IMG/VR virus record: IMGVR_UViG_3300036046_000003
Coordinates: 1 to 64,000 of that record
Strand: one strand, 5' to 3'
Length of the DNA stretch: 64,000 nucleotides
DNA from: a virus
Part shown: positions 7,992 through 64,000 of the stretch, in pieces
How positions within the stretch are numbered: position 1 is the stretch's first letter
How the letters are laid out: each line of letters begins with the position of its first letter
The notes under the pieces: model-generated
What the model was told of the DNA's origin: nothing
What the model saw: the letters and a program-made list of their open reading frames with translations, nothing else
Databases searched by the model: none
Position numbers and translations under genes: made by a program

Positions 7992-8043
7992 TTTATCCGC
8001 CTTGCCTACCTGGGCGAGGCGGATTTTCTTGTTTGGAGCTTGT

Positions 8044-9769: not shown

Positions 9770-9794
9770 CGCCGCCCGCAAGGGTGGTTTTTTT
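9770..9794 (+). terminator. Rho-independent terminator after the recombinase
   Basis: GCCGCCC-GCAA-GGGTGGT followed by a T run. Confidence 0.6.
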
Positions 9795-9815
9795 GTTGTG
9801 TACCAGGAGGGTGCC

Positions 9816-10061: not shown

Positions 10062-10069
10062 AGGTTGTT

Positions 10070-10702: not shown

Positions 10703-10705
10703 ATT

Positions 10706-11392: not shown

Positions 11393-11591
11393 GGCGGCAT
11401 TTCAGACAAGTTCCCCTCGTTAGGGGACTTTGGTTCGGCGGCCACTAATGCCGCCGCCTGCGCAGCGACACGCGCTAGAGTGTCGCAAGACCGCCCCGCG
11501 CTCGCCGATATTGTGGACGTGATCACCCCTTATCGGCGGAGCTTCGCGGGGCGGTCTTTGCATTAAATGCAGAGGCTAGAGGAGGCTTCGC

Positions 11592-18575: not shown

Positions 18576-18650
18576 TACCCGGGGCGGTGTAATTCGCAGA
18601 AAAGCAGCCCTTCGCGGGGCTGCTTTTTCGTGCGCAATAAAGGAGGGCGC

Positions 18651-19877
18651 TTGTTTACAGTAACCTACACCGGGCCGGGGGTTTACGGTATTCCTGGGAT
18701 TGGAGAAGTGCTTCCAGGTCAGCAGTTTGCGGCTGCCCCAAATTTGCTACCTTGGCTAACCTCGAAACCCGATATTTTCTCTGTGGAAACCGACACCTAC
18801 GCCACGTTAGCTGAAAAGCGCCTGGGCTACTTTGGCCCGGTTTCGGCGGCCTTTGGGTACGGTGGGGCGGGTATTACGATTTTGCGGGCACTTTCGTTGC
18901 TGGACTACGAAGCCCGCGTAGCGCCGCACTACGCCGATAGCGCGCAATGGGGGGTTGTCAATACAACCGATCTACCTGCGGACGCGGCTATACAAATCGC
19001 ACACCGGGATTGGCTGCCTGAACTTGATATAGTTCATTGTTTGCCGGACGATCTGCCCCGCGCTAAGGCAAAGCGCCGCGTTATGTGGACGATGTTTGAA
19101 AGCGACCGCGTACCTGACGGCACTATTTCCGGCTTTGGCAACTGGCCGGAGCTTATTAACCGGGGTGCGGAGCGGCTAATCGTCCCCTGTCGGCACAACG
19201 CAGAGGCTTTTGCAAACGGCGGGGTCGAAGTCCCAATTACAGTAGTTCCTTACGGACTTGATACGGACGTATGGCCGTATATGGAGCGCCCCGAACGCGA
19301 TACGTTTACGGTGGTGCTATTCGGAGACCTGACCAATCGAAAAGGGCCGTTTGAGGCAGTAGAAGCGTTTCAATTGGCCTTTCCGAACGAGCGTAACGTC
19401 CGGCTTGTCTTGAAAACGCAGCACGGCGTACTTGGAAACCGTATGCGCGTAATCCCCACTTTCGCCGACACCCGCATTTCTGTGGTGTCTGAGACCTGGA
19501 CGCGGGCACAGTTAAAAGCTTGGCTGTACGACGCGGACTGCTTTATCTGGCCGAGCCGGGGGGAGGGTTGGGGGCTTTGCCCGCTCCAAGCAGCGCTTAC
19601 CGGGCTTCCCCTAGTAACAACTACGCATACGGGTATGGCCGAGTGGTACAACCCCCTTTACTTCTACGGGATTAAGGACTCCGGCACAAGCGAAAGTCCA
19701 CTCGGCGGTCTTTGGTTTGAGCCGGACGTAGAAGACGCAGCCTTTCAGTTGCGGTCGGTTTATGAAAATCGCAAGAAAGCGCTATCCAAAGCAAAACGCG
19801 GAGCCGCTTACGTCAGGAAAAACTTTAGCCTGGAAGCGTTCGCGAGGCGTTTAGGTTCGCTCCTCACAGAACTTTAA
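18651..19877 (+). CDS. Glycosyltransferase, GT4 (GT-B fold)
   Basis: GYG, TMFE, RKG, PSRGEGWGL.PLQA..TGLP.VTT. Confidence 0.88.
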   Translation: MFTVTYTGPGVYGIPGIGEVLPGQQFAAAPNLLPWLTSKPDIFSVETDTYATLAEKRLGYFGPVSAAFGYGGAGITILRALSLLDYEARVAPHYADSAQWGVVNTTDLPADAAIQIAHRDWLPELDIVHCLPDDLPRAKAKRRVMWTMFESDRVPDGTISGFGNWPELINRGAERLIVPCRHNAEAFANGGVEVPITVVPYGLDTDVWPYMERPERDTFTVVLFGDLTNRKGPFEAVEAFQLAFPNERNVRLVLKTQHGVLGNRMRVIPTFADTRISVVSETWTRAQLKAWLYDADCFIWPSRGEGWGLCPLQAALTGLPLVTTTHTGMAEWYNPLYFYGIKDSGTSESPLGGLWFEPDVEDAAFQLRSVYENRKKALSKAKRGAAYVRKNFSLEAFARRLGSLLTEL

Positions 19878-49822: not shown

Positions 49823-50454
49823 TGAACCACCTTCTTTCGGCTCGGGCGCGACCAATGAAGCGTCGTAAGTACGGCTGGCCCCGCGTAACCGTTCTCAAAT
49901 ACAAACAAGCCGTAATCGGTACTGTCGGTATTGCCGTTCTCGGTAAAACTAGGCCTCGGCGTAATTACGGCCAGCTCGCGGAGCGGAGCCATACTCCAAA
50001 GACCGCCGTCCGGTTTGTTTCGCTCTTGCGAGGCACGAAAGCCAAGAGGCAGCAGAAAAGCGGCCCGCCCACCGGGGGTCAGTAGACGCAGCGCCAATCG
50101 TACAAAGGCCTCGGCGGAGCTGTAGGGTGGGTTAGCAAGGATAAGTCCGTAGCGCGTTGTAAAGTCGGCGGCAAGTACGTCCTCTGTCCACCAGCCGTCA
50201 TAATGCGTTGGTTTTGGCGAAGGCCGAAGTTCGTACCCGTCTAACCAGGCGCTCCAATAAATTGCCCTCGCCGCCCTTCCCCAAACCCCGTTGCCTGCGC
50301 CCAGGTCAAGTACGTTTCGCGCCCGAAGGCCTGACAGCGGCGCGGCTTCCCCGGTCAGGGTCGCTGCTCTGCCTACACAAGCCAGCGCTAACGCAAACGG
50401 AGTAGGATAGTGGTCACGCTCTTTGCGCGGTTCTTTGTTGGCTGGCTTATTCAT
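49786..50454 (-). CDS. Amino (N6-adenine-type) DNA methyltransferase
   Basis: D.YPTP, LDLGAGNG (SAM binding), NPPY catalytic motif, RPSF. Confidence 0.88.
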   Translation of the reverse strand: MNKPANKEPRKERDHYPTPFALALACVGRAATLTGEAAPLSGLRARNVLDLGAGNGVWGRAARAIYWSAWLDGYELRPSPKPTHYDGWWTEDVLAADFTTRYGLILANPPYSSAEAFVRLALRLLTPGGRAAFLLPLGFRASQERNKPDGGLWSMAPLRELAVITPRPSFTENGNTDSTDYGLFVFENGYAGPAVLTTLHWSRPSRKKVVQCEDEQYETSLA

Positions 50455-50687
50455 TCAGTCTCTTTCCCACTGCCAAAAACAACCCAAAAGAACGCCAGCA
50501 ACGGAAGGGACAGACCCCAGGCGGGGTGTACTACCCCGGCAATCGATAGCGCCGCCACTACTAGCAAAACCGACAAAAGCGTAGGAAAACTAAGAGCGCG
50601 CCACAGCGGCGGTTCCTCGGCGCTGTGTTTTGTTTCTAGCTCTCGATAGCGCTGAAATAGTTCCCGTTCGTGCTCAGTCAGTTTCAT
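50451..50687 (-). CDS. Small membrane protein
   Basis: Two hydrophobic segments. Confidence 0.55.
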   Translation of the reverse strand: MKLTEHERELFQRYRELETKHSAEEPPLWRALSFPTLLSVLLVVAALSIAGVVHPAWGLSLPLLAFFWVVFGSGKETE

Positions 50688-50693
50688 TTACCC

Positions 50694-51188
50694 TCACTTT
50701 CGATTGGCCTTCAATTGAAGTGCTAACGCACCCGCGTACTCGCGCTTAGAATATGCGGGCCGTGTGTAGTCGAAACCGAACAAGCGCCGTACTGCTTCCC
50801 GCTCGTATTGGCGTGCGTCCCGTTCGTCGGGGGCGTTTTCGTAGCCCCAACGCCGCACCGGCCCCCGCTTCTCAGGAACGTACACTGACCCGTTCCAATA
50901 CCAACCCCAGCGCCGATGCGACGCGCAGTACCGATAGTCGAGTACCCCCGTCACTTTTTGCCACAAGTGACGGCACTCGTGAGCAAGTGTCGAAAGTAGT
51001 TCGTCCTCCGAATAAGCGGTCGCCAGCCGGATCGTGTAGTCGCCTCCCCTCCAAGAAAACTCACCGCAACTATTTCTAGACCCGGGAACAGTTCGCCCCG
51101 GATAGAACTCCCAAGAAAGCGAAACCCCGGATAAACCAAGGTCTGCCAATACTTTATTGCGGTTGTCCTCTCCTAAAATGCCGTGCAT
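50694..51188 (-). CDS. Zincin-like metallopeptidase
   Basis: TLAHECRH.WQ and Y...P.E.DAR. Confidence 0.75.
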   Translation of the reverse strand: MHGILGEDNRNKVLADLGLSGVSLSWEFYPGRTVPGSRNSCGEFSWRGGDYTIRLATAYSEDELLSTLAHECRHLWQKVTGVLDYRYCASHRRWGWYWNGSVYVPEKRGPVRRWGYENAPDERDARQYEREAVRRLFGFDYTRPAYSKREYAGALALQLKANRK

Positions 51189-51351
51189 TGCTCGCCTCGC
51201 TAAATAAAATTGCCGCAGAGTTCCGTTTTATACAAACCTGTGCGCCCACGAGCTTGTTACGGTAACGATCCGCTCTCTGCGGGATTTACCGACTGTTCAC
51301 CAGACACGCGCCTCGCGTAAAGCGCTTCCGTGTCGAACGGCTGGCCGGTAG

Positions 51352-51465
51352 TGGTCGGAAGACTAGGATTTGAACCTAGACGACGCTCACCCATATACGC
51401 CCCTGGGCTGTTGGCGTCACCCCTTCCAAGCGTGGGGCGCGGCTGCCAGATTTCGCCACCTTCCG
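51352..51465 (-). tRNA. Atypical tRNA-Pro(TGG)-like gene with encoded CCA
   Basis: Acceptor CGGAAGG/TCTTCCG-A-CCA; T arm CTAGG-TTCAAAT-CCTAG; D arm with GG; 10-nt anticodon loop; ~40-nt variable arm. Confidence 0.7.
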
Positions 51466-51501
51466 TAGCCAGGGGCCGGTCAAAACGGCCCCCGTAGCGC
51501 G

Positions 51502-52053
51502 TTACTGGCCTTGCAGCTCCGCCAAACGGCTCTGCGCTTCGGCCAGCTCCCGTTCTCGGCGCGCCACTACTTGCCGCGCCGCGATTACTTCCCGCGTTTC
51601 ATTACCCATTGCCCGGTCGTAATCCCGCAGCGCCGCTTCAACTTCGCCAGCGGTCAATCCTACCTCGCGACGCACTTCCGAAATTGCGGCTGCGATAGAC
51701 ACAACTTCGTTTCGCAAAAAGGCGCGACAAACCTCCTCTTGCTCCAAAAGCGCCCCAACAAACTCTTGGGCCGCAGCGTAGGAAAGTCCCCGGCAGCGCC
51801 GCGCCGCCGCGATTACCGGACTTTCAGCCGCCGTAACGCCGCTCGTCTTTTGCAACCAGTCGTAGGCCGTTACAATGGCGGCACCCTCCAACACTGAAAG
51901 ATACCTGTCTTCCAGCGCCGTTTGCAATTTTGACCTATCCGCCCCGGACTTCACCGCCAGAAGGTCGGTAAGCTCGCGGACGGCCCCCTCGTCCTCGTAA
52001 CTACTCGTATCGACACCCCCGGCAATCCAACGCCGTACCGCGTCTATACCCAT
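51502..52053 (-). CDS. Hypothetical helical protein
   Basis: ORF with RBS. Confidence 0.6.
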   Translation of the reverse strand: MGIDAVRRWIAGGVDTSSYEDEGAVRELTDLLAVKSGADRSKLQTALEDRYLSVLEGAAIVTAYDWLQKTSGVTAAESPVIAAARRCRGLSYAAAQEFVGALLEQEEVCRAFLRNEVVSIAAAISEVRREVGLTAGEVEAALRDYDRAMGNETREVIAARQVVARRERELAEAQSRLAELQGQ

Positions 52054-52111
52054 TGGAGTTTCCTGTGTCTGAGGGGCCGCTGTTACGCGGCCCCGCTATT
52101 CTTCGTCGGCG

Positions 52112-52948
52112 CTACGCCTTCGGGGCTGCCTCTGCCTGCGCCTTCGCCTGTAGATAGAACTTGCGGCCAAACGGCGGGGCAAAGAACTGGCCGGGGAACT
52201 CGGAGAACACATACACCGCCGCCGTCCCCAGCTTGTCGGCCTGCATAGTCGCCCACTTCTCGTTCGACACCCACTCCTCGTCAGCCTGCCCCCGGTTCCG
52301 CGCCCAACCGTTAATCTGCTCACCAGTTACCGAACACAACACCAGCGGGTTGTCGGTGGCCTCGCGGGGGTCTGCTGCGCGCTCGGCAGGAACCCACTTT
52401 GGAAGCAGTTCGTCCTCGGGAACGCGGCTGATTACCTTATCAAGCCAGTTCTTCGTTCCGTTTCCGTCCAGAAGGGCGTAATACTGCGGCTGGTCTACTT
52501 CAAGCTGATTGACAATATTCACGAGGTCGTTCAGTTGCGCGTCCGTCAGGTCAGCGCCGTCATTCAGCAGCCGACAGAGAAGCAAATAGGCATTAGATAC
52601 CTTCTGACCCTCCTTCGGGCGACCCAGGTACTTTGGTCGGTTCACGTCAATCCAGAAGAAGCGACCGTGACCCTTATCCTCGTTCTTATCGGGCCGCACA
52701 TACGCGAACTTAAACGAAAACTTAGGAACCCACACAACGTCCGGGTCGCTATCGACCAGGGTACGGGTCTCGTAGGACTTTTCCGTCTTCTCCGTCACTG
52801 ACAAAAACTGATAGACCCCCTGCCCCAGACGCAGATAAGGCCGCTGAATACGAGGCCGCGTCTGAGTAGCCTGTGTGTTGATTGCGTCTCCTGCGAGTGC
52901 CATTCGTTCAATCTCCTTTTGTTGGCTTTCTTGCCGCGTCGCCCTCAC
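52112..52948 (-). CDS. Hypothetical protein, possibly ssDNA-binding
   Basis: Aromatic beta-rich N-terminal half; first gene downstream of repeat copy C. Confidence 0.5.
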   Translation of the reverse strand: MRATRQESQQKEIERMALAGDAINTQATQTRPRIQRPYLRLGQGVYQFLSVTEKTEKSYETRTLVDSDPDVVWVPKFSFKFAYVRPDKNEDKGHGRFFWIDVNRPKYLGRPKEGQKVSNAYLLLCRLLNDGADLTDAQLNDLVNIVNQLEVDQPQYYALLDGNGTKNWLDKVISRVPEDELLPKWVPAERAADPREATDNPLVLCSVTGEQINGWARNRGQADEEWVSNEKWATMQADKLGTAAVYVFSEFPGQFFAPPFGRKFYLQAKAQAEAAPKA

Positions 52949-53009
52949 TTGTGGCGACCGCCGCAGTGTAGCGCGCCCCTCCGCAAGCGTCTACTAGTAC
53001 GCCGCACTC

Positions 53010-53707
53010 GTGCAGTAAATGCAGAACTTTTCTCCGTTCCGCCAAAACCTTGTCAAGAGATTTATGAGAAAATAGATTACAGTTTTGTAATGTGTATTTG
53101 GCTTTGGAACGCGGTAAAACCGAAATAGGTACCCCGAACTACCTGCTTCTACCCCTCTTTTTGTCCCATTAACTTGTTTTTAACTGGTATACTAAGAGGG
53201 CCTTTAGGGAGGTGGGGTTGTAGGAGTGCGTCTCCTCTAGAAAACGCGTTAGCGTTTCCGTCGAGCGGAGCGAGACGGGCCTGGGGGTGCAGGGGCGCGG
53301 CTAGCGCCCCGCGTAGTTGTACGTGTTGCCCCTACCCTGCCTAGTGTCGGCCTGTGCGGCCCAAAGCGGGAACTTCGGAAAATATATAGGGTTGTGAAAA
53401 GTATCACAACCCTCCTCGTGTACCCAACACAAGCCCGAAGAACACAAAGACCGCTCTAACCCTACGGGTTGTGTAGGCTATTCCAGTTCCCTCTTCTTCC
53501 TATAGCTCTCTCTCTTAAAGAACCTTCTCTGTTCAAGTATATGGATTGTGAAACTTTTCACAGCCTTGTGCAGTTAATGCAGAACTCGGGAAGAAGCGGC
53601 GCAGTTTTTCGCAGTTGCGAAGTAGAAGTACCCTACTCAGGTATACCCTTCTGGTTCTATCGTCGCACCTGGAGCTTCCCAGGCCCCTTGTAGGTCATTC
53701 TAGGAGA
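53010..53707 (-). repeat. Dispersed structured non-coding element, copy C (inverted)
   Basis: Reverse complement of copy B, with segments that match copy A better. Confidence 0.95.
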
Positions 53708-53744
53708 GAGCGGCGACAGAGAGTAAACGCACGAGGAGGGGCAC

Positions 53745-53786
53745 AAAAAAGAGACCCCCCTGAGAAAGGGGGGGGGTCTCTTTTTT
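53745..53786. terminator. Bidirectional terminator
   Basis: A run, GAGACCCCCC...GGGGGGTCTC, T run. Confidence 0.8.
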
Positions 53787-53794
53787 ATTTGCTT

Positions 53795-54631
53795 TTAGAC
53801 GTTGCGATTGCGGCAGCTCGCGCAACGTAGCTTTCCGTCAGCGCCCGCTTTGCGTGCTTGTTTGATCGCCGCTCCTTTCGCGCCGGGGTTCAACGCGACG
53901 CCACAGTCCGCGCAGACCTCGTTCGGAATTACTTCAACGGGGGCCGGGAAGCTTTCAGCTTCGCGTGGAAGCGTCAACACGGACGGGGGCGCAGCGTCTA
54001 CCGGGCCGAAAGGTACGGCTGGTGCTGGCAACTGTGAAAGAAGTTTCGCCGCGAACGCACGGCGCTGCTCTACCAGGGCTTCCATTTTTCGGTCAAGTTC
54101 CTGCTGAAAGGCCAGTTCCGCCGTAATCGGCGCGAGACGCCGCTCTACAGCGGAAGTGGGAGTTTGTTCTAGCTCTAACTCTCGATGTCGCTTTACCCAG
54201 CCGGACAGACTTAGGTATACCCCAAACGGAGGAAGCGCCGCCCATACACCTACCAACAACGCCGCGCCTGCGGGCACTCCCCACAGAGAAAAATCGCGTA
54301 CCGCTGCCCAGGCCGAAGCTACCTCGGTTGCTCGGTACAGCGCCGACCAGCCCTCCACAAAGTTGGGCAGTACCGCAGCCGTCAACAGGCCGCGAGCCAA
54401 CCAATCTAAGGGCTTATCCCATAGCAGGTAGAACCGCGTAAGGATTTTTGCGCCAAAGGCCATACCCTCGAAGATAAGTACCACGAGTGCTGCGCCGAGG
54501 GCGGAGCTGTGCGTAAGCGCGGCGACGCCGTATGTGGCCGGTACACTGACGGCCAAGCAGATAAGCGCGAAGATAAGCAGGAAACTAGAAAGCGCGTCCA
54601 GCGAACGTTTTTTGTGGGCAGGGGGCTGCAT
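53795..54631 (-). CDS. Four-TM plus coiled-coil membrane protein with C-terminal Zn finger (Spd-like architecture)
   Basis: Four hydrophobic helices, heptads, Pro-rich linker, CADC...CASC. Confidence 0.65.
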   Translation of the reverse strand: MQPPAHKKRSLDALSSFLLIFALICLAVSVPATYGVAALTHSSALGAALVVLIFEGMAFGAKILTRFYLLWDKPLDWLARGLLTAAVLPNFVEGWSALYRATEVASAWAAVRDFSLWGVPAGAALLVGVWAALPPFGVYLSLSGWVKRHRELELEQTPTSAVERRLAPITAELAFQQELDRKMEALVEQRRAFAAKLLSQLPAPAVPFGPVDAAPPSVLTLPREAESFPAPVEVIPNEVCADCGVALNPGAKGAAIKQARKAGADGKLRCASCRNRNV

Positions 54632-54639
54632 TGCTTCTC

Positions 54640-55059
54640 CTAGTGAATAGGGACTAGCGCGGCGGGCTGCGCAGCGAACCACAGCCAAAGTAGCGCCAAC
54701 GCGCAGAGGATTACAAGAAACAGTTTGAACCCTACTTTAAGCCGTCGCAAAAGCTTGCGAAGTCGCCGCTCTAACGGGTGCTGCGCTTGATTGATCGCGT
54801 CGTCCAGGGCGGCTACTGCGAACGCGGGGTCTACATTGAACCATTCTCCAGCAAGCCGCCATTTGGCAAGGCGTCTGTGTGTAGCTGCTTCGATTTCAAA
54901 CGGCTTTGCGACAGGACGCCAGCCGCGTAAGTAGAGCCGCTGGCTATTCCCCGTTTGCAGTTGGCTCCGCCGACCGCCCTTGCTTTCCGGGTGTCGGTTC
55001 GCTTTGCCGACCTTTACCGGGCCGTTATTACCTTCCTGGTAGACGTAAATACCTGCCAT
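54640..55059 (-). CDS. GIY-YIG (T5orf172-like) protein with C-terminal TM anchor
   Basis: IYV....GPVKVG.A....R..QLQTGN, E...H..L...R..GEWF. Confidence 0.75.
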   Translation of the reverse strand: MAGIYVYQEGNNGPVKVGKANRHPESKGGRRSQLQTGNSQRLYLRGWRPVAKPFEIEAATHRRLAKWRLAGEWFNVDPAFAVAALDDAINQAQHPLERRLRKLLRRLKVGFKLFLVILCALALLWLWFAAQPAALVPIH

Positions 55060-55064
55060 TGCCT

Positions 55065-55361
55065 TTACAAACCCCCTATCCAGTCAGAAATACGCCCGTT
55101 GTGGTGTGCGTCCCATAGTGCGTGTACAAAGCGCTCCACTTCGTCCCGCCAAGACCACCACTTGTCTACAATCCTTACCCAACCCTCGGGCAGCTCCGCC
55201 TCGTCGTCGAAAGAACCGTACTCCCCGGTAGCGGGGTTATACCCGGCGGTGTAGCCCCCAGGTTCTCTTCCGGTCAGAAGCTCGTCCAGAGTAAACAACT
55301 CACGAATAACGGGCTTTCCTAGCTCCGCCGCTTGTGCCGCGAACTCCGATTGAAAACTCAT
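55065..55361 (-). CDS. Hypothetical protein
   Basis: ORF packed against the next gene. Confidence 0.55.
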   Translation of the reverse strand: MSFQSEFAAQAAELGKPVIRELFTLDELLTGREPGGYTAGYNPATGEYGSFDDEAELPEGWVRIVDKWWSWRDEVERFVHALWDAHHNGRISDWIGGL

Positions 55362-55444
55362 TGTTTACGCCTTTCTATTGGCTTAGAACCCGCTTATTTG
55401 TTACGCTTGTCGTTCTTCTCAGCGAAATACGCCAACACAACGGC

Positions 55445-55651
55445 CTAGAAGGACGTAGCGACGAAGGTGTACACAAGGTAACAATTCAGGCAGAGCAGCG
55501 CCCATAGAACGGGAACCCAGGCGGGCACCAACGCGGCCAGGACGAACAAGAGCGTGGCGCACAGCCCGAAGGTCGCCACCAGCGCGAAGGGCAGCTCCGC
55601 GTTTGTCAGTTCGTTTAGAACGGTACTCATAAAACGATTAGCCTTCGGCAT
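55445..55651 (-). CDS. Small two-TM membrane protein
   Basis: Hydrophobic sequence; TAATG coupling. Confidence 0.55.
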   Translation of the reverse strand: MPKANRFMSTVLNELTNAELPFALVATFGLCATLLFVLAALVPAWVPVLWALLCLNCYLVYTFVATSF

Positions 55652-55896
55652 TAACTACCCTTCTTATCCAGTGCCGCGTTTTCCGCTTCGATATACCTGA
55701 TATACGCCGTCTCTAGGTCACGCGCCGCCTGCGCTGCTTTTAGCAGAGCCGCCGACAGTTGCTCGGCTTCCTCGAAGGAAAGTCCGCAGTATACGATCTC
55801 GCCAGTTTCAGCCCTTCCCTGTAGGCATACGTCGGTGGGGCCGAGACCCCACTCGCAGGCGACGACAAACACGGGAACTGAGAGTAAGCGCGCCAT
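55651..55896 (-). CDS. Hypothetical protein
   Basis: Coupled ORF. Confidence 0.5.
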   Translation of the reverse strand: MARLLSVPVFVVACEWGLGPTDVCLQGRAETGEIVYCGLSFEEAEQLSAALLKAAQAARDLETAYIRYIEAENAALDKKGS

Positions 55897-55919
55897 TGGA
55901 CAAATCGCTTTCTGTGCTA

Positions 55920-56456
55920 TTAGGGAGTTTCGGAAATCTTTTTAACTAATGTACAGACTTTACGGTAGCGGTCGCCCCCGGTGGCCCCAAACACAAGGCG
56001 TATAGCCTCTGTTTTACTAGCCCCGCGACCTATTAGCGTGCGGACTTCCCTTGCCCCCGCTTCGTCCAAGGGCCGTGACGCCGCCGCTTCACTTACCAGT
56101 TTTCTTTCGCGGTCAACCCGCCCCCTTGCTTTAGCGGTACGAAACGGTGGTTCAGTCGCCGTGCGTGTTCCTAACTCCGCGTCCAGGCGCGCCATTGCGT
56201 TCCCCAAATGAAACAACTGCTCTACGCGGTCTTTAGGCCCGCTAAACCACTCATTGCGAAATCTATAATCCTGCAAAAGTTCGTGAACTTCCCGCTCCAC
56301 TCGGTACGGATTGGGCTGTTCGTAAGTGGCAACGACAGACTGCACGAGCGGGCAACCCGTTTGAAGGGTTTTCGTCCTTTGAAGCGCGTCGCTGTCTGTG
56401 ACCCCAATCTTAAAATAGTCCGTATCGCCCATTTGAATTAAATAAACAAGCCCCAT
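55920..56456 (-). CDS. GIY-YIG (T5orf172-like) protein with C-terminal HTH-like domain
   Basis: VYLI......FKIGVT....R...LQTGCP, E..VH, NEWF. Confidence 0.78.
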   Translation of the reverse strand: MGLVYLIQMGDTDYFKIGVTDSDALQRTKTLQTGCPLVQSVVATYEQPNPYRVEREVHELLQDYRFRNEWFSGPKDRVEQLFHLGNAMARLDAELGTRTATEPPFRTAKARGRVDRERKLVSEAAASRPLDEAGAREVRTLIGRGASKTEAIRLVFGATGGDRYRKVCTLVKKISETP

Positions 56457-56460
56457 TAGC

Positions 56461-58281
56461 TTATTCCTGACTTTTGTGTTGCTGCGCGGTTTCCACAACA
56501 ATTTTTACCGCCTCAAACTCGTATCGAAGCCGCTGGTACGCACGTCCGCCGGTAACGCCTGTAGTCTTTTTTAGCGCCGTTGCTACCTCATTTCCGTTTG
56601 TTTTGTAGACCTGCAAAGTTTTGACTAGTACCTTCCGGTTTTCCGCAGATAGCCTTCGAAACACCAAAAGCGCCTCCTTAAAGCTAGTTGGTACAAACTG
56701 ACCTTCCCCCCTGAAAGGGCCGGAAGGCGCATTGTTACGCCTTGGAAGGTCATCGGAAGAGGAAGGCGACCCAGCTACCGCCAAGTTACCCACAGGTCTA
56801 CCTTCCGCCTTGCCTTCCGTGTTATTTACCGACCCTTCCAACAGTTCCGCCAGAAGGCATAGGCTATCCTCCGAAACCTCCCTGTTTGGCGCTTCGTTCG
56901 CTTGTACCCCCGCGAAGCCTGGATACGCAGGTGCCGCTATACTTTTCCGTGGAAGTCCCTCTACAATTTCGTCAAATCGGTCTTCGTTTGCTTCGGGGTC
57001 GCCGCGAAATATCGGCGTTCGCAGCAGCGTAAACTCCCCGCGAACTTTTGCCACAAAAACCCCCCGCTCCTGTGGCGGCGGTGGAATTTTGCTCGGTCGA
57101 AACGGCAGTGCGGTAGTGTCGCGTACTCCTAATGCTGGGCCGTCCTGAGAGCCGTCCACTAGCGCCCCAGCAAGCACCGTAGAGAGGTTCATTCGCCAAT
57201 CCAGACCCTTTCCTGTTGGCGTTTGCATAGATACCAACACCCGGATACCCAACGACCTCGCTTTGCTGACCAGGGCCGCCAAAAGCGCTTCCACTTCCCC
57301 TGTTATCGCGTCCATTACGTCCGTGACCACCACCACAAGCAGCGGCAGCTCAGCGACCCCGCCTTGCGCCGCCCGTTTGTTGTACTGTTCTCGCGTTCGG
57401 CAGCCCGCCGAAACAAGCAACTCCTGGCGGCGCTCGGCCTCGGCGTCAATGACCTTGCAAGCCATTAGAATAGCTTCGCGGCCCTTTTTACCGTAGCCCC
57501 CCGCAGGCGGAAAGAACATATGAGACAGCCCCGACAGGGCGGGCACTAACCAATCTGATTTACCGTCCAGGAACGCAAACTGTAGCGTTTCCGGCCCGTT
57601 TCGGCTCGCCAAAAGCGCGAACCAACAGCGCAAGAGTGCGTCTTTTCCCGCCCCGCTCGTACCGTAAATACCTATATGAAGCAAATCCAGGGCAAGATCG
57701 CCCCACACCTGCTTTCCGAGATAATCTGTGCCCAACGGCACTGCGGTTGTGCTGGCAGGAAACGGCTGAAACTCACCCAAAAGCACGCGCTTTGGAAGTG
57801 CGTTTAGTGCAGAAGCCATTGACGCCGAGGGGCTTTGCAAGCCAGCAGGACGGCTTGCCGCGCCTTTTAGACCGTCGTCATCTTCCCGGCCACGCCCCTT
57901 CGACCTCTCCGGGGGCACAGCCGAGGTTTGAGCCGTTGCTACGGCTTGCGAAGTCGTAGCGCTGGGCGGCGTTTTTGCCGCTAGTTCTTTTCGAGCGGGG
58001 GCGGACAAGCGCGCCGGTGTAGTCTCTACCAGCCGCACCAATCCCGGCCAGGAACCTTGCGCGTACGTATTCCGGGCCACCTGACGTGGGTCAATGGCTA
58101 AGGCTTTGCAAACGGCGGCGGCGACGGAGGGCGAACGGCGAAGAAAGTATTGACCGAGCGGCAGCAGGAAAAGAGGAGCTGCCCCAGCGGCTCCCCCTGC
58201 CACACCGATAGCCGCAAGCAAAATATCGGTCGCGTCGAATGGAGGTGGGTTTTTTGGCTTGTTCTCTATCGAAGTTTCCAT
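56461..58281 (-). CDS. FtsK/SpoIIIE (TraB-like) DNA translocase
   Basis: N-terminal TM, VPLG, HIGIYGTSGAGK, FLDGK, E.ERR, PLLVVVVTD, KARSLGI.VLVS.Q.P. Confidence 0.85.
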   Translation of the reverse strand: METSIENKPKNPPPFDATDILLAAIGVAGGAAGAAPLFLLPLGQYFLRRSPSVAAAVCKALAIDPRQVARNTYAQGSWPGLVRLVETTPARLSAPARKELAAKTPPSATTSQAVATAQTSAVPPERSKGRGREDDDGLKGAASRPAGLQSPSASMASALNALPKRVLLGEFQPFPASTTAVPLGTDYLGKQVWGDLALDLLHIGIYGTSGAGKDALLRCWFALLASRNGPETLQFAFLDGKSDWLVPALSGLSHMFFPPAGGYGKKGREAILMACKVIDAEAERRQELLVSAGCRTREQYNKRAAQGGVAELPLLVVVVTDVMDAITGEVEALLAALVSKARSLGIRVLVSMQTPTGKGLDWRMNLSTVLAGALVDGSQDGPALGVRDTTALPFRPSKIPPPPQERGVFVAKVRGEFTLLRTPIFRGDPEANEDRFDEIVEGLPRKSIAAPAYPGFAGVQANEAPNREVSEDSLCLLAELLEGSVNNTEGKAEGRPVGNLAVAGSPSSSDDLPRRNNAPSGPFRGEGQFVPTSFKEALLVFRRLSAENRKVLVKTLQVYKTNGNEVATALKKTTGVTGGRAYQRLRYEFEAVKIVVETAQQHKSQE

Positions 58282-58309
58282 TTGCGCGTTTCCTTATGCG
58301 GCTGCTTGC

Positions 58310-58886
58310 AAGTCACTCTAGTGGCTTGCGCGCCTCGTCTTGGTGGGTGCATTGTATCCTTTCGCGCCGCAGCTGTCTACTATATCTCCGCAACCCGTCG
58401 CGTTTTAAGCCACTCTAGTGGCTTGCAAGCCGTTTTACCCCGGTAGTGCGCTCAAATCGGGGTTTAAGCCACTCTAGTGGCTTGCAAGGTCGCTTGCAGC
58501 CGTCGATTTTCACCGCCACCAGGCCCCAAAACGGGCTTTTCGTGCGTTTCCCTGGTGGTAGGCCCACAAAGAACGCCTCTCGGGGGCTGTCCCAAGAGGC
58601 GTTTTAAGCCACTCTAGTGGCTTGCAAGCCGTTTTACCCCGGTAGTGCGCTCAAATCGGGGTTTAAGCCACTCTAGTGGCTTGCAAGGTCGCTTGCAGCC
58701 GTCGATTTTCACCGCCACCAGGCCCCAAAACGGGCTTTTCGTGCGTTTCCCTGGTGGTAGGCCCACAAAGAACGCCTCTCGGGGGCTGTCCCAAGAGGCG
58801 TTTTAAGCCACTCTAGTGGCTTGCAAGCCGTTTTACCCCGGTAGTGCGCTCAAATCGGGGTTTAAGCCACTCTAGTGGCTTGCAAG
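58310..58886. repeat. 199-bp tandem array (~2.4 units) holding six exact and one degenerate copy of a 26-nt palindrome
   Basis: TTTAAGCCACTCTAGTGGCTTGCAAG at 58404, 58463, 58603, 58662, 58802, 58861; variant at 58310. Confidence 0.95.
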
Positions 58887-58891
58887 GACTC

Positions 58892-59587
58892 TTAGGCCCG
58901 CCCGGCGGTGCGTGCGTCGCCTCGCCCGGTTTCTGGCGCGCCTTTCATTGCGTTCAGAATAAGCACAATACCGGCGGCAAGAAACAAAATAAAGGCCATT
59001 TCCATAACCAGGGACGCGATTAACGTCATTACGAGCTTGGCGGCAATACCAAGACCGCCAGCAAACGGCCCCGCCCACAAGAGCGCGCCCCGGTCAATGT
59101 ACGTCTGGACGAAGAGCGCCGAACGCTCTAAGTCGGTGATAAAATCAAACACGATAAAGGCGTACACGAGCCATTCAATAAAGGTAATCCCCGCCCGCGC
59201 CAACCGCGCCCCGAACAATTCCAACAGCGTTGGAAACAACGAAACGAGGGTGCCCACCATAACGGCCCACTGTGGCGAAACCAAACCGTAGCTGCTTTCC
59301 ACCGCCCGGCGGGCTTCGGCCAGCCAATCGTAGGTACTCTCCAAGTCAAAGTAGTAGGCAAGGCCACCACAGATACTAGCGATAGCGAGAAACGCGATAC
59401 CGCTAATCATCGCCGAACGCCCTGTAGTACCGCGTACCGCCTTGAACGCTCGTTCAAGATTTTCGCTCAGGTCAAGCCAGCCGAGAAAGTCCCCGTTTCT
59501 GCCAAAAGCCGCATAGAGCAAACCCGCAATCGCCAAAAAAACAAGCCAATCGAAGGGGCCGTAACCGTTAAAAGGATTGTACAGCAC
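58892..59587 (-). CDS. Multi-pass membrane protein
   Basis: Five to six hydrophobic segments; AGAGGAG RBS. Confidence 0.7.
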   Translation of the reverse strand: MLYNPFNGYGPFDWLVFLAIAGLLYAAFGRNGDFLGWLDLSENLERAFKAVRGTTGRSAMISGIAFLAIASICGGLAYYFDLESTYDWLAEARRAVESSYGLVSPQWAVMVGTLVSLFPTLLELFGARLARAGITFIEWLVYAFIVFDFITDLERSALFVQTYIDRGALLWAGPFAGGLGIAAKLVMTLIASLVMEMAFILFLAAGIVLILNAMKGAPETGRGDARTAGRA

Positions 59588-59672
59588 TGAGTTCTCCTCT
59601 GGTTTTGCGAAGTATTACTCCGCAGGTACGATAAGTAAAGAGCGCCCCTTTCGGAGCGCCGGAAGGTTTAGC

Positions 59673-60188
59673 TTACTTTTGTAGGTCTGCCTTCGCCAAC
59701 TGAACGATAGCGAGCATAAGCGCCACCACCTTGCGGCGCTCGCCAATCGGAATATCGTCCAGTTCTCGGGCTACTGGACTAAAATCCCCGGCGCTAGGTA
59801 GCTTGTAATTGCGTATGTCAACCTCATCAAACCACCCATCAGCTAAGCCAAACTCTAGTGGATTACAGCCAATAACCTCCGCAATCCTGCGGAACGTTTG
59901 CGGTTTTGCTTTAGAGCGGCCACTAAGAATGGCCGACAAAAAGCCCCGCGAAAGCGGTTCCTCCACCACGGTCGCGGCTTCCCCCTCTACCCGGGTATCA
60001 ACAGGCCGCTTTGCCCTGGCGGCCACGTCCGATACGTTCAACCCCAGCGTTCTGTCGGCGTATAAGAGCCAATAGCCCAGGCAGAGGGTTAAGTCCTCTA
60101 GCCGATGTTCGTGAAGGTACGCGAACAGCGCGTCGGTATTGCGCCCATAGGTCGCCTCTGCGGCGCGATATTTACTTTCTACTGCCAC
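59673..60188 (-). CDS. XRE-family HTH regulator (candidate repressor)
   Basis: GL.VSDVA.R[insert]LSRGFLSAILSG...P......IA..IG. Confidence 0.7.
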   Translation of the reverse strand: MAVESKYRAAEATYGRNTDALFAYLHEHRLEDLTLCLGYWLLYADRTLGLNVSDVAARAKRPVDTRVEGEAATVVEEPLSRGFLSAILSGRSKAKPQTFRRIAEVIGCNPLEFGLADGWFDEVDIRNYKLPSAGDFSPVARELDDIPIGERRKVVALMLAIVQLAKADLQK

Positions 60189-60201
60189 CTCCTCCTACTT
60201 T

Positions 60202-61086
60202 CTACACCGGAACAGAAACCGCAGCGGGTCGCGTCGCCGGTTTCTCGCCGCGCCGCCGCAAATACAAACCCTCTAACCGCGCCGTTGCCTGCGCCGTATA
60301 GCGCTGCGTCGTCTCACAACGCTTATGCCCTGCTATACGCCGTACCGCGTCAATATCCCCCCCGTTGGGGTCGTCCAGCAACTCGGTAAGCAGTTGGTGG
60401 CGGAACAAATGAGGGTGAACGTCCGGGCGACCTACAACCGCGCCCAGCTCTGTAACAAGCTGCCGTACCCGTTGGTCGCTCAACTCAAACAAGCGCCCCG
60501 TTTTCGGAAAGCCGCGCAGCGCAAGATAATGCCGAAGCGCCCCGGCTGTCTGGTGATCGAAATAGACTAGTCGCTCGTCTCCGCCTTTCCCCATTACCGT
60601 CGCCTTGCCCGCTTCGTCCGCGTGGCGGGGAAACTGCACGTTTTCGATACACAAACCCACGACTTCGCTTACGCGCCCGCCTGTGGCCCGCAACACCAGC
60701 AAAAGTGCCAGGTTACGCGCCCCCGCTACCGTAGTGGTGTCGCAAGCACAGCACATTCCCTCAAACTCTTCCGGCGAAAGCAACTGCGGAAGTACCAGCG
60801 GTACTTTAACCCCGCGAACGGCAAGCGCCGCCAATACGTCGCCGCTTAGTAGCTCCTCCGCCACCGCCCAGGTCAAAAACGCACGTGCTGCCGACAGTCG
60901 CCGGTTCACCGTCGCCGGTGCGTAACCCTGCTGTAGTGCTTGCCGGTACGCGGCTAGTTGCTTTGGTCGCAACTCCTCTACGCTGTATCCGTTATCGGAT
61001 AACCACTGAGAGAAGGCGCGGAGGTCAGCGGCGTAGGCGCGGCGGGTCTGCGGGGACTGTAGGGTATCGAGAAACCGGGGGAGCAT
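60202..61086 (-). CDS. Tyrosine recombinase, XerC/D-like
   Basis: S..T.RAY..DL, TGGRVSE, GKG, HPHLFRH, GH....T.RY. Confidence 0.92.
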   Translation of the reverse strand: MLPRFLDTLQSPQTRRAYAADLRAFSQWLSDNGYSVEELRPKQLAAYRQALQQGYAPATVNRRLSAARAFLTWAVAEELLSGDVLAALAVRGVKVPLVLPQLLSPEEFEGMCCACDTTTVAGARNLALLLVLRATGGRVSEVVGLCIENVQFPRHADEAGKATVMGKGGDERLVYFDHQTAGALRHYLALRGFPKTGRLFELSDQRVRQLVTELGAVVGRPDVHPHLFRHQLLTELLDDPNGGDIDAVRRIAGHKRCETTQRYTAQATARLEGLYLRRRGEKPATRPAAVSVPV

Positions 61087-61486
61087 AAAAGGAGCCTTTG
61101 CACTAACTGCACAAGTAGTATACGCGGTCTGTCAACTCTGCGCAACTGCGGCGTACTTTAGTCGGCGGGCGGCGGCGCGATCCCGTTCCTGGGCGCGGCG
61201 TTCTTTTGAGCGGGACGCCTCTACCGGCGGGTCTTCGTCCACGTACTCTTCTGCGGGGTTGTTTCGTTCACGCAGGCGGGGTTGCCGTTCTTTGCGAAGC
61301 ACCAGTGTCTCCTTTCCTACCGCCGCGTACGGGGCGGCTAGCTCGAAAAGTATACAGTTGCTTCGCAGCGGCGTCTATCGAACGGGTCGGAATTGAACCT
61401 ATTGCTAGTCGTTATCTCCGTAGACCGCCGAGGGGCTATTCCCTCTTGTGGGCAACCTAATGCGGGTTGCGTATACGGAGGGACGA

Positions 61487-63022
61487 ATGCCAGACGAGAC
61501 AGTCAACGGGAACCTTACGGTGACGGGGACGGTGTACGCCGATAACTTTAGAACAGCGGCGTCTGGTTTGCTTTCTATCGAAAAAGATAACGCTAAACTA
61601 AACCTGTCACGCAGCTCTAATGTTACAACGGCAAGCCTTAGTGTGGCTACTTCGGGCAGTATCGCGCTTGTCGCGGATAATGGAGAGACTATTGCTTCGT
61701 ATCGTGCTTTGGCACACCGCTTCTATTTGGGCGGCTCTGCGCAACCCTTTTTCATCGCGGATAACAACCGACTAGAGTATGTCACCTCCTATTACGACAA
61801 GTATAGCGTTACCGGCGATAATGAAGCCGGTCAGATTGAAGTAAACGCCGTAACAAGCGGAGGGGCAGAGGCGGTACTCCAATCATACGCTGCGCGCCAC
61901 GATTTTTTTGTTTTAGGCAACCACCGGGCTGCCTTTACCTCCGGATTAGAGCTTTATGGCGGGCAGGGAGCGGCCAGTGTCTCGGCGCGTAGTAATTCGG
62001 GTGGGGCCGCAATCCCGCTGGTGCTAAACGGCAGTGACGTTGCTGTTACTGCCCCTTTTAGTGCCCCGTCCGTGTTGGTTTTCGGCCAGGTCAGCGCTGG
62101 TAATCTAAGTACGGTTGGTTCGATTGCTGCGCCGGGTGTGCTTATCCAGAACCAAAATATCCAGGCAAACGGTTGGCTGGCCTCTCAGTCTTTGTCGGCA
62201 GACCAGCGGATTGAACTGCGATCTATTGACGGCGGTGGCGTTCGCGTTCGCGCCAGTAACTTTGCAAACAACGCGCTCCGTCCGCTAGACCTGGAAGCTA
62301 GTGTAGTGAGAACGCCAGGGTGGGTCTCTGTCGGAAGTGGCACACAGAACTATACGCCAACTGGCTCCACCTGGGCTACCGGCGGCGCTACCTTGCTGCT
62401 GAATGGCCTGGATACGACTTCGATTGCTTTTCACGACGCCAATAACCGCGTGGACGCAATTGTAGCGGGCGGCGGTCTGATGCGCGTTGGGCCGGATACC
62501 GGCTTTGGCCCTGCGAACGTTCAAACCTACGGCTTTACCGGCGCGGGCGGCGTTCCTCTTGCGAACCAGCGTATGCGCGTCTATTCTAGCGGCGATAACA
62601 GCGGTCACTTCCCTCTCGCCGTTGTGAATAGCGCAGGCAGCGCGGCGCTGATGTACGTTCGCGGCGATGGTTACGCCTGGACGAGCCAGCCGTGGGCTGT
62701 TGGCTCCGACGAACGCCTGAAAGACAAGGTTGAGCCGCTTGACGCTACCGCGCTAGAGAAGTTGGCCCAGGTTACGTTCCACCGCTACCAGCTTCGCGCA
62801 AACGGCCTCCCGCAAGTCGGGGTCATAGCGCAGGAGCTACAGCAGGTGTTCCCTGAACTGGTGAGCGAACACCACGACCCGGCCAACCCGAACGAGGCAC
62901 CGCTGCTGGCGGTCAACTATCAGGGTCTCGCGGTCTACCAGGGAGCCGCAATCCAGCAACTCGCCGCAAAGGTTGCGGGCTTGGAAGAGCGTCTGGCCGC
63001 ACTCGAAAAGCGCTTTGCCTAG
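61487..63022 (+). CDS. Second, isolated tail fibre/spike with S74 chaperone
   Basis: SDERLK, G.IAQE.Q.VFPELV, VNY.GL; 56-aa block shared with 35463-38072. Confidence 0.85.
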   Translation: MPDETVNGNLTVTGTVYADNFRTAASGLLSIEKDNAKLNLSRSSNVTTASLSVATSGSIALVADNGETIASYRALAHRFYLGGSAQPFFIADNNRLEYVTSYYDKYSVTGDNEAGQIEVNAVTSGGAEAVLQSYAARHDFFVLGNHRAAFTSGLELYGGQGAASVSARSNSGGAAIPLVLNGSDVAVTAPFSAPSVLVFGQVSAGNLSTVGSIAAPGVLIQNQNIQANGWLASQSLSADQRIELRSIDGGGVRVRASNFANNALRPLDLEASVVRTPGWVSVGSGTQNYTPTGSTWATGGATLLLNGLDTTSIAFHDANNRVDAIVAGGGLMRVGPDTGFGPANVQTYGFTGAGGVPLANQRMRVYSSGDNSGHFPLAVVNSAGSAALMYVRGDGYAWTSQPWAVGSDERLKDKVEPLDATALEKLAQVTFHRYQLRANGLPQVGVIAQELQQVFPELVSEHHDPANPNEAPLLAVNYQGLAVYQGAAIQQLAAKVAGLEERLAALEKRFA

Positions 63023-63027
63023 ACCGT

Positions 63028-63087
63028 AAAAAAGAAGCCCCCTTTACAGAGAACGAAACGTTCTGTAAAGGGGGCTTCTTTTTTTTT
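63028..63087. terminator. Bidirectional terminator
   Basis: A run, GAAGCCCCTTTACAGA...TCTGTAAAGGGGGCTTC, T run. Confidence 0.85.
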
Positions 63088-63135
63088 GTTAGCGGCTCCC
63101 CGCTACAAAGGCTACCGGCGGTTAGGCCGCTCTTT

Positions 63136-63405
63136 CTAAAGGGTCACTCCTATGGCCTGACACAACGATCCCGCCGTCCGCCTAAGAGCTTTTAGGCTTT
63201 CGCCGTTACAGGGGCGCACTTCCGCCGAGTAGAAGTTGACAAGATAACCCGCCATTAGAAATAGCGTTCGACTGTCGTCCGTCTCGATACGCACGCCGTC
63301 AGCGCCGGGGTGGCTCGAATAGCAGCCCCCAAAGCCCAGGGAAAGTATCGCGTTGACCGTGTGTACGTCAAATCCAGGGTAATACCGAACGAAGAAGCTG
63401 TACAT
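63136..63405 (-). CDS. Hypothetical protein
   Basis: TAATG coupling with AAGGAG RBS. Confidence 0.55.
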   Translation of the reverse strand: MYSFFVRYYPGFDVHTVNAILSLGFGGCYSSHPGADGVRIETDDSRTLFLMAGYLVNFYSAEVRPCNGESLKALRRTAGSLCQAIGVTL

Positions 63406-63773
63406 TAATAGGTCTCCTTAACTTCTACAAAATTCACACCCTCACTGTAGTAGCCGTTACTTTCGCCATACCAACGAAGCGTAACGTACCCCTTAATAGT
63501 GGCGAACTTATAGAACGTCCAAGTATAGCTACCCCAGTCATTTGTTCCGCCCTCGGAGACTTCCTCCGCCTGCAAAATCGGAGCGTCGGTAAGATCGTCC
63601 AAATTACCGATAACGTCCTCTAGGGTAACACTTTCGCAGCAGTCCTGGTCGTGAAACATTTTCCAGCGGCGTCCGTCCTTGCAGATAAACACCAACTCGT
63701 CGCCGTCCGTACTGCGGTGAATGGCCTCTAGCGTTACGCCCACCAATACACTAACGTCCTGATACTGCTGCAC
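63405..63773 (-). CDS. Conserved phage hypothetical protein
   Basis: H.QDCCE.V..EDV.G.L.DL, S.TWTFYK.AT.KGYVT.RW.GESNGYYSE.V pattern. Confidence 0.75.
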   Translation of the reverse strand: MQQYQDVSVLVGVTLEAIHRSTDGDELVFICKDGRRWKMFHDQDCCESVTLEDVIGNLDDLTDAPILQAEEVSEGGTNDWGSYTWTFYKFATIKGYVTLRWYGESNGYYSEGVNFVEVKETY

Positions 63774-64000
63774 TACCCGACCTCCCCTTGGTAAGTAAAT
63801 TCGGCTGCGTCGAAGTCATTTTTCAGCTCGTCCAACGGGCGACGGTAAGGCGGTTCGTCTCCCGAATACGAATAGTCTAGCTCGCTCGGCTCAGTCCTAC
63901 GGCGGCCACTGACAGGGAACTCACAAAAGGTAGTCGCGGGTTGACCTTCCATAGCGCCTCCAAGTCCGAAACTTTTTCGCTGCGGCCAATACCCGATAGA

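Follow-up and report, generated by a model that had tools for sequence, protein, structure and literature searches.

We analyzed a 64,000-nucleotide (nt) stretch of viral DNA, here called the window, which comprises bases 1 to 64000 of the IMG/VR virus record IMGVR_UViG_3300036046_000003. The record is 72,427 bp long and rated complete. An initial annotation, made from the letters of the window, had read the genes between 53795 and 61086 as one module resembling the TraB and Spd proteins with which Streptomyces plasmids move double-stranded DNA (dsDNA) from cell to cell. We found that two neighboring genes of this block, both on the minus strand, form a conserved, undescribed membrane-motor module and that most of the block lies outside it. 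The first encodes a 231-amino-acid (aa) multi-pass membrane protein (58892 to 59587), and the second encodes a 606-aa membrane-anchored ATPase (56461 to 58281) predicted to have the FtsK motor fold. The observation behind the initial annotation is confirmed, and its interpretation is supported in part.

The ATPase begins with an N-terminal anchor, a single hydrophobic segment at residues 19 to 43. A low-confidence linker (about residues 76 to 143), the motor (about 150 to 450), and a four-helix C-terminal domain (534 to 605) follow, and in the AlphaFold model the predicted local distance difference test score exceeded 90 at about residues 150 to 450 and 530 to 606. The Pfam model FtsK_SpoIIIE (PF01580) matched residues 179 to 336 with an E value of 1.8e-9 and 37.8 bits, above its gathering cutoff of 24. 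When the model was compared with known structures by Foldseek, the dsDNA-bound FtsK motors 6t8o and 6t8b came out on top (E value of about 2e-15, template modeling [TM] score by target of 0.58 to 0.59, root mean square deviation of about 3 Å, about 313 columns). For the FtsK structures 6t8o, 6t8b, and 2ius taken together, E values were about 1e-15 and TM scores by target were 0.57 to 0.60. EccC/EssC of type VII secretion systems came next, followed by the conjugation coupling protein TcpA. The initial annotation's membrane-anchored FtsK ATPase was thus borne out by the Pfam match, the anchor segment, and the modeled fold.

The Walker motifs GAGKD and VVVTD, which had been flagged as unusual, read as described and turned out to be the rule in the clade. 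A database search with the ATPase returned 164 relatives, and the counts that follow are for the best 120 of them, all of which are unnamed or annotated "hypothetical" and have motor cores with 44 to 59% identity. Walker A was G-K-D in 120 of 120. At the Walker B position where FtsK has D, the relatives had T (104/120) or S (16/120), and where FtsK has E, all 120 had D. The canonical combination of GK[S/T] with h4-D-E is therefore not the pattern of this clade. We read the change as an exchange of two metal ligands in which the catalytic carboxylate is kept, and, because G-K-D and [T/S]-D are conserved clade-wide, as a probable working site rather than decay. The initial annotation had allowed for an inactive ATPase; the site proved to be conserved, not decayed.

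Sequence comparisons place the ATPase in an unnamed clade, and neither profiles nor a tree assign it to TraB. All NCBIfam scores were below their cutoffs, so that no curated family admits the protein: EssC (TIGR03928) gave 38 bits against a cutoff of 778, TIGR03924 gave 35.6 against 509, FtsK gave 24.5 against 1566, and TraB (NF041214) gave 15 against 800. The TraB model is a narrow test, since pIJ101 Tra itself gets only 10 bits. A profile built from the ATPase family gave its best scores to two Herpetosiphon plasmid proteins (136 and 109 bits) and an EccC-like protein (91 bits), followed by proteins of Bacillus phage Mater (63 bits), Streptomyces EccC (54 bits), a Ralstonia phage (45 bits), and mycobacteriophage Pound (33 bits). 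It did not retrieve pIJ101 Tra at an E value of ≤10, and hhalign against that protein gave a probability of 30% across 80 columns. In a 24-row tree whose panel held a single Tra protein, that of pIJ101, the ATPase family and the Herpetosiphon proteins formed one clade (support of 100/99) apart from all else. pIJ101 Tra sat on a long branch, weakly grouped (85/85) with the Bacillus, Ralstonia, and Mycobacterium phage proteins, and the EccC-like domains were also separate from the ATPase family. The suggested kinship with TraB was therefore not upheld, and the same was true of the Spd-like membrane proteins: in BLASTP searches against pIJ101 SpdB, the sole Spd protein compared, the 231-aa protein gave an E value of 0.99 and the 297-aa membrane protein of the block gave 1.2. 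Of the comparisons that had been proposed, the Pfam and fold comparisons with FtsK gave matches, and the sequence comparisons with TraB and pIJ101 SpdB did not.

Several better-known ATPases are instructive by comparison. Cellular FtsK and SpoIIIE share with the phage protein the best fold match, PF01580, and the order of parts, namely, an anchor, a long low-confidence linker, a motor, and a small C-terminal domain. The phage ATPase differs in having one hydrophobic segment where FtsK has several, GKD and [T/S]D in place of GK[S/T] and DE, a C-terminal domain not recognizable as a gamma winged helix, and an obligate upstream membrane partner. Cultured phages also encode FtsK/SpoIIIE-like ATPases (PHROG 1358 and 3551, from Bacillus Herelleviridae, Mycobacterium Omegavirus, and others), to which no role has been assigned. 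They were 23 to 32% identical over the motor in 172 records, none of which reached 80% query coverage, and they formed a separate clade in the tree. EccC/EssC provided the top PDB profile match and a near-top fold match, but these proteins have three ATPase domains in tandem, whereas the phage protein has one, scores far under their cutoffs, and falls in a separate clade.

We then looked at which genes accompany the ATPase in its relatives. A single-protein scan of IMG/VR gave no relative, and an alignment-based scan was needed, which found 18 IMG/VR contigs, 4 contigs of two metagenome-assembled genomes (MAGs), and 8 metagenome loci. The metagenome loci were mostly short, and the long contigs of the closest relatives were not among them. 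Neighbor counts are for the fetched loci; the relatives P0002 to P0007 and P0013 (45 to 51% identical, full length) stand outside these counts. In a search of the loci with all open reading frames (ORFs) of the phage, the ATPase was present in all 18 viral loci. Its 231-aa partner was encoded directly upstream in 17, the eighteenth being without upstream DNA, and also in the 2 Oscillochloris MAG contigs. The only other genes common to the viral loci were polA (PolA) and three further replication-region genes. In the viral relatives, genes for a primase-helicase, PolA, and a Cas4-like nuclease precede the pair, and a PAPS-reductase-like gene and those for terminase and portal follow it. The motor core was 53 to 58% identical between phages whose PolA proteins are 33 to 36% identical.

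In the 19 other loci with both genes, the two ORFs abut or overlap, and it is only in this phage that they are split, by 610 bp. With longest-ORF calling, these 19 loci showed a 4-nt overlap (7 loci), a 4-nt gap (1 locus), or a 70- to 119-nt overlap (10 loci); for L023, no ATPase ORF was called. The recombinase, helix-turn-helix (HTH) protein, T5orf172 proteins, small ORFs, and 297-aa protein of the block were found beside the pair in none of the fetched relatives. Judged by gene content, the conserved unit is therefore the two genes and not the whole block, contrary to the single module that had been proposed. The synteny comparison with related phages and Chloroflexota plasmids thus gave a mixed outcome: the pair is kept in phages and a distant ATPase occurs on Herpetosiphon plasmids, but the rest of the block is absent beside the pair in the fetched phage and MAG relatives.

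The partner has five to six hydrophobic segments, in agreement with its annotation as a multi-pass membrane protein. Its alignment shows invariant D39, N43, D81, E123, D148, D152, and N212, in or near the hydrophobic segments. No Pfam domain occurs in any of the family's database clusters, of which there are at least 74. Atlas look-ups stayed at lead or chance level (best value of 0.87 for the partner and 0.80 for the 297-aa protein). Complex prediction for the ATPase and its partner gave a score of 0.00 (mark, 0.32), which carries no weight either way. A full-text literature search, outside which lie the supplements that may list such genes, returned nothing on this clade, the partner, or the GKD swap. 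One publication (PMC8597652) reports a Chloroflexus-associated viral operational taxonomic unit with an integrase and an FtsK/SpoIIIE gene but does not analyze that gene.

The pair also occurs outside recognizable tailed phages. In the Oscillochloris MAG contig L026, about 2 kb separate it from a tyrosine integrase unrelated to the recombinase of the phage. That integrase follows an ORF with a full-length PHROG match (415 bits), which also matches PHROGs of the release factor RF-1 domain. The gene directly downstream of the pair (8826 to 11654) encodes an MmeI-like type IIL restriction-modification enzyme (PDB 5hr4, 7e-45); a gene for a primase-like protein lies downstream as well. No virion family matched any of the 10 ORFs of L026 that were scanned, and its far end had one marginal tblastn match to the phage (21% over 42 residues, E value of 0.001).

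The nearest named relatives of the ATPase are Haur_5007 and Haur_5297, encoded by the Herpetosiphon aurantiacus plasmids pHAU01 and pHAU02, respectively (29% identity). They have an N-terminal anchor like that of the phage protein and SGKD, the family profile matches them over almost its full length, and each gene is preceded by an overlapping or abutting multi-transmembrane gene. They differ in that Walker B is S-E. Homology between the Herpetosiphon upstream membrane proteins and the phage partner was undetected, including by hhalign with the partner profile. Haur_5007 and Haur_5297 are annotated merely as "cell division FtsK/SpoIIIE," and their neighbors gave no functional clue. On pHAU01 (L003, 11011 to 11165), five copies of a 12-mer of the AAAGCGACAATA family lie intergenically about 1.8 kb downstream of the FtsK-like gene in an iteron-like arrangement.

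The 610 noncoding bp that separate the two genes in the phage (58282 to 58891) hold the repeat array reported in the initial annotation. A unit of 199 bp is present 2.5 times with 100% identity (58400 to 58887) and bears six exact copies of the 18-bp inverted repeat AAGCCACTCTAGTGGCTT, which has 8-nt arms and a 2-nt spacer. A seventh, degenerate copy (58310 to 58334) sits between the ATPase start and a sigma-70-like promoter match on the minus strand (58351 to 58379; TAGACA-17-TACAAT, 10/12). This match, a consensus match only, is the best of its kind in the region and lies between the array and the ATPase start. The repeat core was found nowhere else in the 72,427-bp genome, the 18-bp motif was found in no other IMG/VR contig, and the array was missing from the same position in 19 of the 19 other loci, so it is specific to this phage lineage. 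The looser pattern AAGCC-N8-GGCTT, with one mismatch allowed, matched 19 times where 4 matches were expected. Ten of these lie outside the array, and 5 of the ten fall within 3.2 kb just downstream of it (54739 to 57947), three of them in the 5' part of the ATPase gene. Most simply, the array is a putative region for an operator or for loading, placed between the two genes. The form of the sites and the adjacent promoter-like match fit an operator; loading of the motor is another possible role.

Short motifs also recur inside the ATPase ORFs of the relatives. In 17 of the 18 viral relatives (L005 to L022), the dispersed 10-mer of that lineage, GTCACAACAC, and its complement occur three to seven times inside the ATPase ORF as inverted pairs. 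They always flank the conserved core on both sides and are translated as VTTP/VVT in the linkers. The ATPase ORF makes up 10% of the DNA and holds 74 of the 208 copies. The eighteenth viral locus has a different motif at the corresponding places, and in this phage a copy of its own TGCA-N5-TGCA box (described below) lies immediately ahead of the motor core, with no copy behind it. Such motifs may be internal starts giving an anchorless motor, may allow cassette exchange of the core, or may be recognition sites for the motor.

What might the pair do? We tentatively favor, at somewhat less than an even chance, the reading that it pumps the dsDNA of the element itself at the membrane or septum. 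If it works as FtsK and SpoIIIE do, the motor would assemble into a ring on the cytoplasmic membrane, where the partner would supply or gate the passage across, and the C-terminal domain would select the DNA. In a filamentous host, possibly a member of the Chloroflexota, the likely benefit would be to clear, keep, or distribute phage genomes, either replicating or lysogenic, across septa. In favor of this pump are the FtsK fold, the conserved ATP site, the recurrent pairing with the partner, the conservation of the motor core, the place of the pair among replication genes in relatives, the plasmid relatives, and the repeat-like sites just downstream of the array. A number of points weigh against it. 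In PDB profile searches, EccC 4nh0 (3e-24) outscored FtsK 2ius (2.6e-12), and EccC/EssC nearly equal FtsK by fold, so the substrate could be a protein. Neither the Walker A Ser/Thr nor the Walker B Asp of canonical sites is present, which leaves conservation as the sole ground for activity. The C-terminal domain, in the confident part of the model, has four helices, no strands, and no wing, and the C-terminal 87 residues gave no PDB sequence match below an E value of 0.35, no Pfam match, and no DNA-binding family. In two Gemmatales MAG contigs the ATPase gene lies beside polA and the partner was undetected. A family member at an E value of ≤1e-50 was present in only 1 of 401 sampled Chloroflexota genomes. 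No ParA/ParB or other plasmid maintenance gene was matched among the scanned ORFs, a subset of those in the genome. Finally, the Chloroflexota host is only a candidate, suggested by the Oscillochloris MAG relatives, the Herpetosiphon plasmids, and Atlas leads below 0.9.

The machine originally proposed, which would pump phage dsDNA into neighboring cells of a filament without virions and use the array as its clt locus, now seems to us unlikely. Thoma et al. 2015 (PMC4447253) describe TraB and Spd proteins as a DNA translocation complex and suggest that SpdB2 homologues on actinophages might aid the spread of phage DNA. That paper, together with PMC3583192, portrays Streptomyces systems (pSVH1, pIJ101, pWTY27, and the integrative and conjugative elements of actinomycetes [AICEs]) that resemble the phage pair in several respects: a single FtsK-like membrane motor on a mobile element, membrane proteins encoded beside the motor, a locus of repeats that adjoins the gene or lies within it, and no relaxase or type IV secretion genes. 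The phage pair, too, combines an FtsK-fold motor and its anchor with a membrane partner, and its array adjoins the ATPase gene with degenerate copies inside that gene, while the Streptomyces clt loci, as described in PMC3583192, similarly consist of varying combinations of direct and/or inverted repeats, which in some cases extend into tra. The pair lies near an integrase in the MAG contig in which 0 of 10 scanned ORFs matched a virion family, and distant relatives occur on plasmids of a filamentous bacterium, both of which would suit transfer. However, the ATPase failed every TraB membership test run, and no similarity to pIJ101 SpdB was found. A further difference from the Streptomyces systems is that the phage repeats have an inverted form (8-nt arms) that relatives do not conserve, and they look like operator-type sites beside a promoter-like site; the absence of the array from the same position in the other 19 loci and of the motif from all other IMG/VR contigs tells against a clt-like part in the module. 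The ATP site residues are swapped relative to TraB, and most carriers are tailed phages outside the Actinomycetota that have terminase and portal genes and can already leave the cell. In pIJ101, according to PMC4170104, SpdA2 binds a palindrome within its own gene and affects stability, not transfer. A broader version of the idea, which we hold to be equally improbable, is that filamentous Chloroflexota have in the pair a portable system for passing dsDNA independently of virions, a non-actinomycete counterpart of TraB/Spd with a separate origin within the FtsK superfamily. It would be common to tailed phages, integrated elements, and, distantly, plasmids, and would serve spread or inheritance along the filament through septa, with the lineage-specific boxes flanking the motor core in the ORF as recognition or exchange sites. 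The Streptomyces element pZL12, if it is indeed a plasmid-phage, would be a precedent for a virion-forming element that conjugates, although it is an actinomycete element.

Other alternatives change the substrate or the timing rather than the motor. A pump that acted at the membrane on DNA of foreign or host origin, for instance by blocking or expelling superinfecting genomes or by moving host DNA, would agree with the PHROGs class of the nearest phage families (1358 and 3551), which is moron/host takeover, with the MmeI-like restriction enzyme that adjoins the pair in L026, and with the T5orf172 proteins that adjoin the ATPase in this phage. PADLOC also matched the ATPase parts of mad8 (32.9 bits) and SspH (24.7 bits), but these matches are weak and confined to motor residues of about 173 to 357. 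The relatives carry the pair within their replication module, and no protein is better conserved than the motor among very divergent phages, an unusual trait for an accessory exclusion gene; we therefore regard exclusion or takeover as improbable. More doubtful still is a one-domain relative of EccC/EssC that would export a phage protein with the help of the partner. EccC 4nh0 is the best PDB profile match, EssC is the best NCBIfam match, and the two are a close second by fold; several EccC/EssC domains have noncanonical ATP sites too. On the other hand, the ATPase has a single domain and not three in tandem, 38 bits is far under the EssC cutoff of 778, the family stands apart from EccC-like domains in the tree, the best fold matches are to DNA-bound FtsK, and no WXG100-like gene was matched within the block in Pfam or NCBIfam. 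The least probable reading, in our judgment, is that an early protein hauls the rest of an infecting genome through the membrane once a first segment has entered. T5 and phi29 have a two-step entry that requires early phage proteins, and a membrane anchor on a DNA-motor fold, encoded amid early and replication genes in the relatives, would suit such a task. The pair is also present in integrase-bearing L026, where none of the scanned ORFs matched a virion family, and distant relatives are on plasmids, both of which speak against an entry helper. Its gene position relative to the packaged end is also uncertain, and the 127 bp repeated at the genome ends may be an assembly overlap.

Phage FtsK/SpoIIIE-like genes have long been annotated without a tested role, and this clade offers handles for giving them one: a fixed membrane partner, an invariant metal-ligand swap that could be reversed by mutation, and, in this phage, an array of 18-bp sites. 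If the pair moves or partitions the element's DNA across septa, as in the pump that we favor, infection and lysogeny in multicellular filaments would need rethinking, and one-protein dsDNA translocation would reach beyond actinomycetes. If it is an exclusion device or a protein exporter instead, it would still be an undescribed two-component membrane machine.

The remainder of the block is as the initial annotation had listed it, and all of its ORFs are on the minus strand. It starts at an exact copy of the TGCA box, TGCACTAACTGCAC (61099 to 61112), 13 nt upstream of the start of a recombinase gene (60202 to 61086). The 294-aa product matched Pfam Phage_integrase (6.5e-20), SAM_1, and the integrase family PHROG 1. 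It scored 155 bits against NCBIfam XerC (cutoff, 335) and 150 against XerD (cutoff, 330), and we class it by sequence as a tyrosine recombinase of Xer-like build and not as an XerC/D equivalog. Dimer resolution of the FtsK-XerCD-dif type, with this recombinase and the motor acting together, was considered and rejected as the main reading: no similar recombinase lies beside the pair in the fetched relatives, and the 2-nt spacer of the repeat is unlike a tyrosine recombinase core site, for which such a spacer is atypical. The next gene (59673 to 60188) encodes a 171-aa protein whose HTH_3 match (E value of 0.0013) reached 19.1 bits, below the cutoff of 23; the "XRE regulator" is for this reason a lead only. 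A terminator-like hairpin, again a consensus match only, lies at 59641 to 59660 on the minus strand, between this gene and that of the membrane partner. Because of this hairpin and the promoter-like match before the ATPase gene, the block may be more than one operon.

Downstream of the ATPase gene are two genes for T5orf172/MUG113 proteins, one of 193 aa (55920 to 56501; MUG113, 1.2e-15) and one of 139 aa with a C-terminal hydrophobic segment (54640 to 55059). We take this family to belong to the GIY-YIG clan of Pfam, and on that assumption both fit the GIY-YIG proteins of the initial annotation. Between them lie an 81-aa ORF with a weak PHROG 2870 match (55651 to 55896), a 68-aa ORF with two hydrophobic segments (55445 to 55651), and a 98-aa ORF without a family match (55065 to 55361); the 68-aa product fits the small transmembrane proteins noted earlier. 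The last gene (53795 to 54688) encodes the 297-aa protein, which is also without a family match. Its hydrophobic segments, at residues 28 to 84 and 134 to 161, agree with the membrane-spanning protein described, and two Cys pairs lie near the C terminus. The block closes with a strong hairpin (53745 to 53786) that is accompanied by T runs on both strands, and an Rfam Thr_leader match there was below the gathering score. As had been stated, the block carries no recognizable relaxase or type IV secretion gene: scans of its ten proteins with Pfam, PHROGs, NCBIfam, and PADLOC matched no such family. The recombinase, HTH, T5orf172, and other small proteins are neighbors in a box-to-terminator unit, not proven partners of the pair.

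The TGCA box ties the block to the rest of the phage. TGCA-N5-TGCA has 12 copies dispersed in the genome, and with one mismatch allowed the window had 19 matches against 0.2 expected. A one-mismatch copy on the minus strand (57798 to 57811) falls in codons 157 to 161 of the ATPase gene, just ahead of the motor core, and is identical to an intergenic box at 35405. Both of the boxes reported for the block were thus found. Where checked, the boxes are intergenic and shortly upstream of a start codon, with the copy at 40405 lying within listed ORFs. They are probably a phage operator or promoter signal, and the block, which starts at one of them, fits the phage regulon in which it had been placed. 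The next unit leftward carries its own copy of a longer box-bearing element. The initial annotation had also raised the possibility of an insert flanked by att sites, but we found no convincing att-like direct repeat bracketing 53795 to 61086. Given this, the absence of tRNA genes, the even GC content, the phage box at the start, and the place of the pair in the replication module of relatives, the block is not an independently inserted, AICE-like element.

Box positions in the window are 3103, 11559, 24648, 25306, 31799, 35405, 40405, 45607, 53011, 53569, and 61099, and those beyond it in the genome are 72115 and 72270. The box often reads GTGCAnTwAnTGCAC, and most copies precede the start codon of the first gene in a group by a few tens of bases. 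The copies at 31799, 53581 (minus strand), and 72270 have a longer element of about 45 bp in common.

The gene content of the genome identifies it as that of a tailed phage. PHROGs matches include the terminase large subunit, portal, head protease, major head protein, and tail fiber, as well as a family A DNA polymerase and a DnaB-like helicase; the genome further encodes a primase-like protein. GC content is uniform along the window, which has no tRNA, and an Rfam scan of 50000 to 64000 gave subthreshold matches on hairpins only. The genome ends are repeated over 127 bp.

A large serine recombinase (window 8002 to 9675; PHROG 95, 8e-67) coexists in the genome with the Xer-like tyrosine recombinase. 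A glycosyltransferase-like gene (window 18630 to 19877; PHROG 2170, 5.6e-38) lies amid the head genes. Past the window end, two pentapeptide-repeat proteins are encoded at genome positions 64101 to 64628 and 66003 to 66884 (L002, 4101 to 4628 and 6003 to 6884; Pfam PF00805, 7.7e-25 and 3.1e-48), both among small minus-strand ORFs. A tail-fiber-like protein with a C-terminal Peptidase_S74 chaperone domain (1e-13) is encoded at window positions 61448 to 63022, divergently from the block and away from the main tail genes at 26 to 38 kb.

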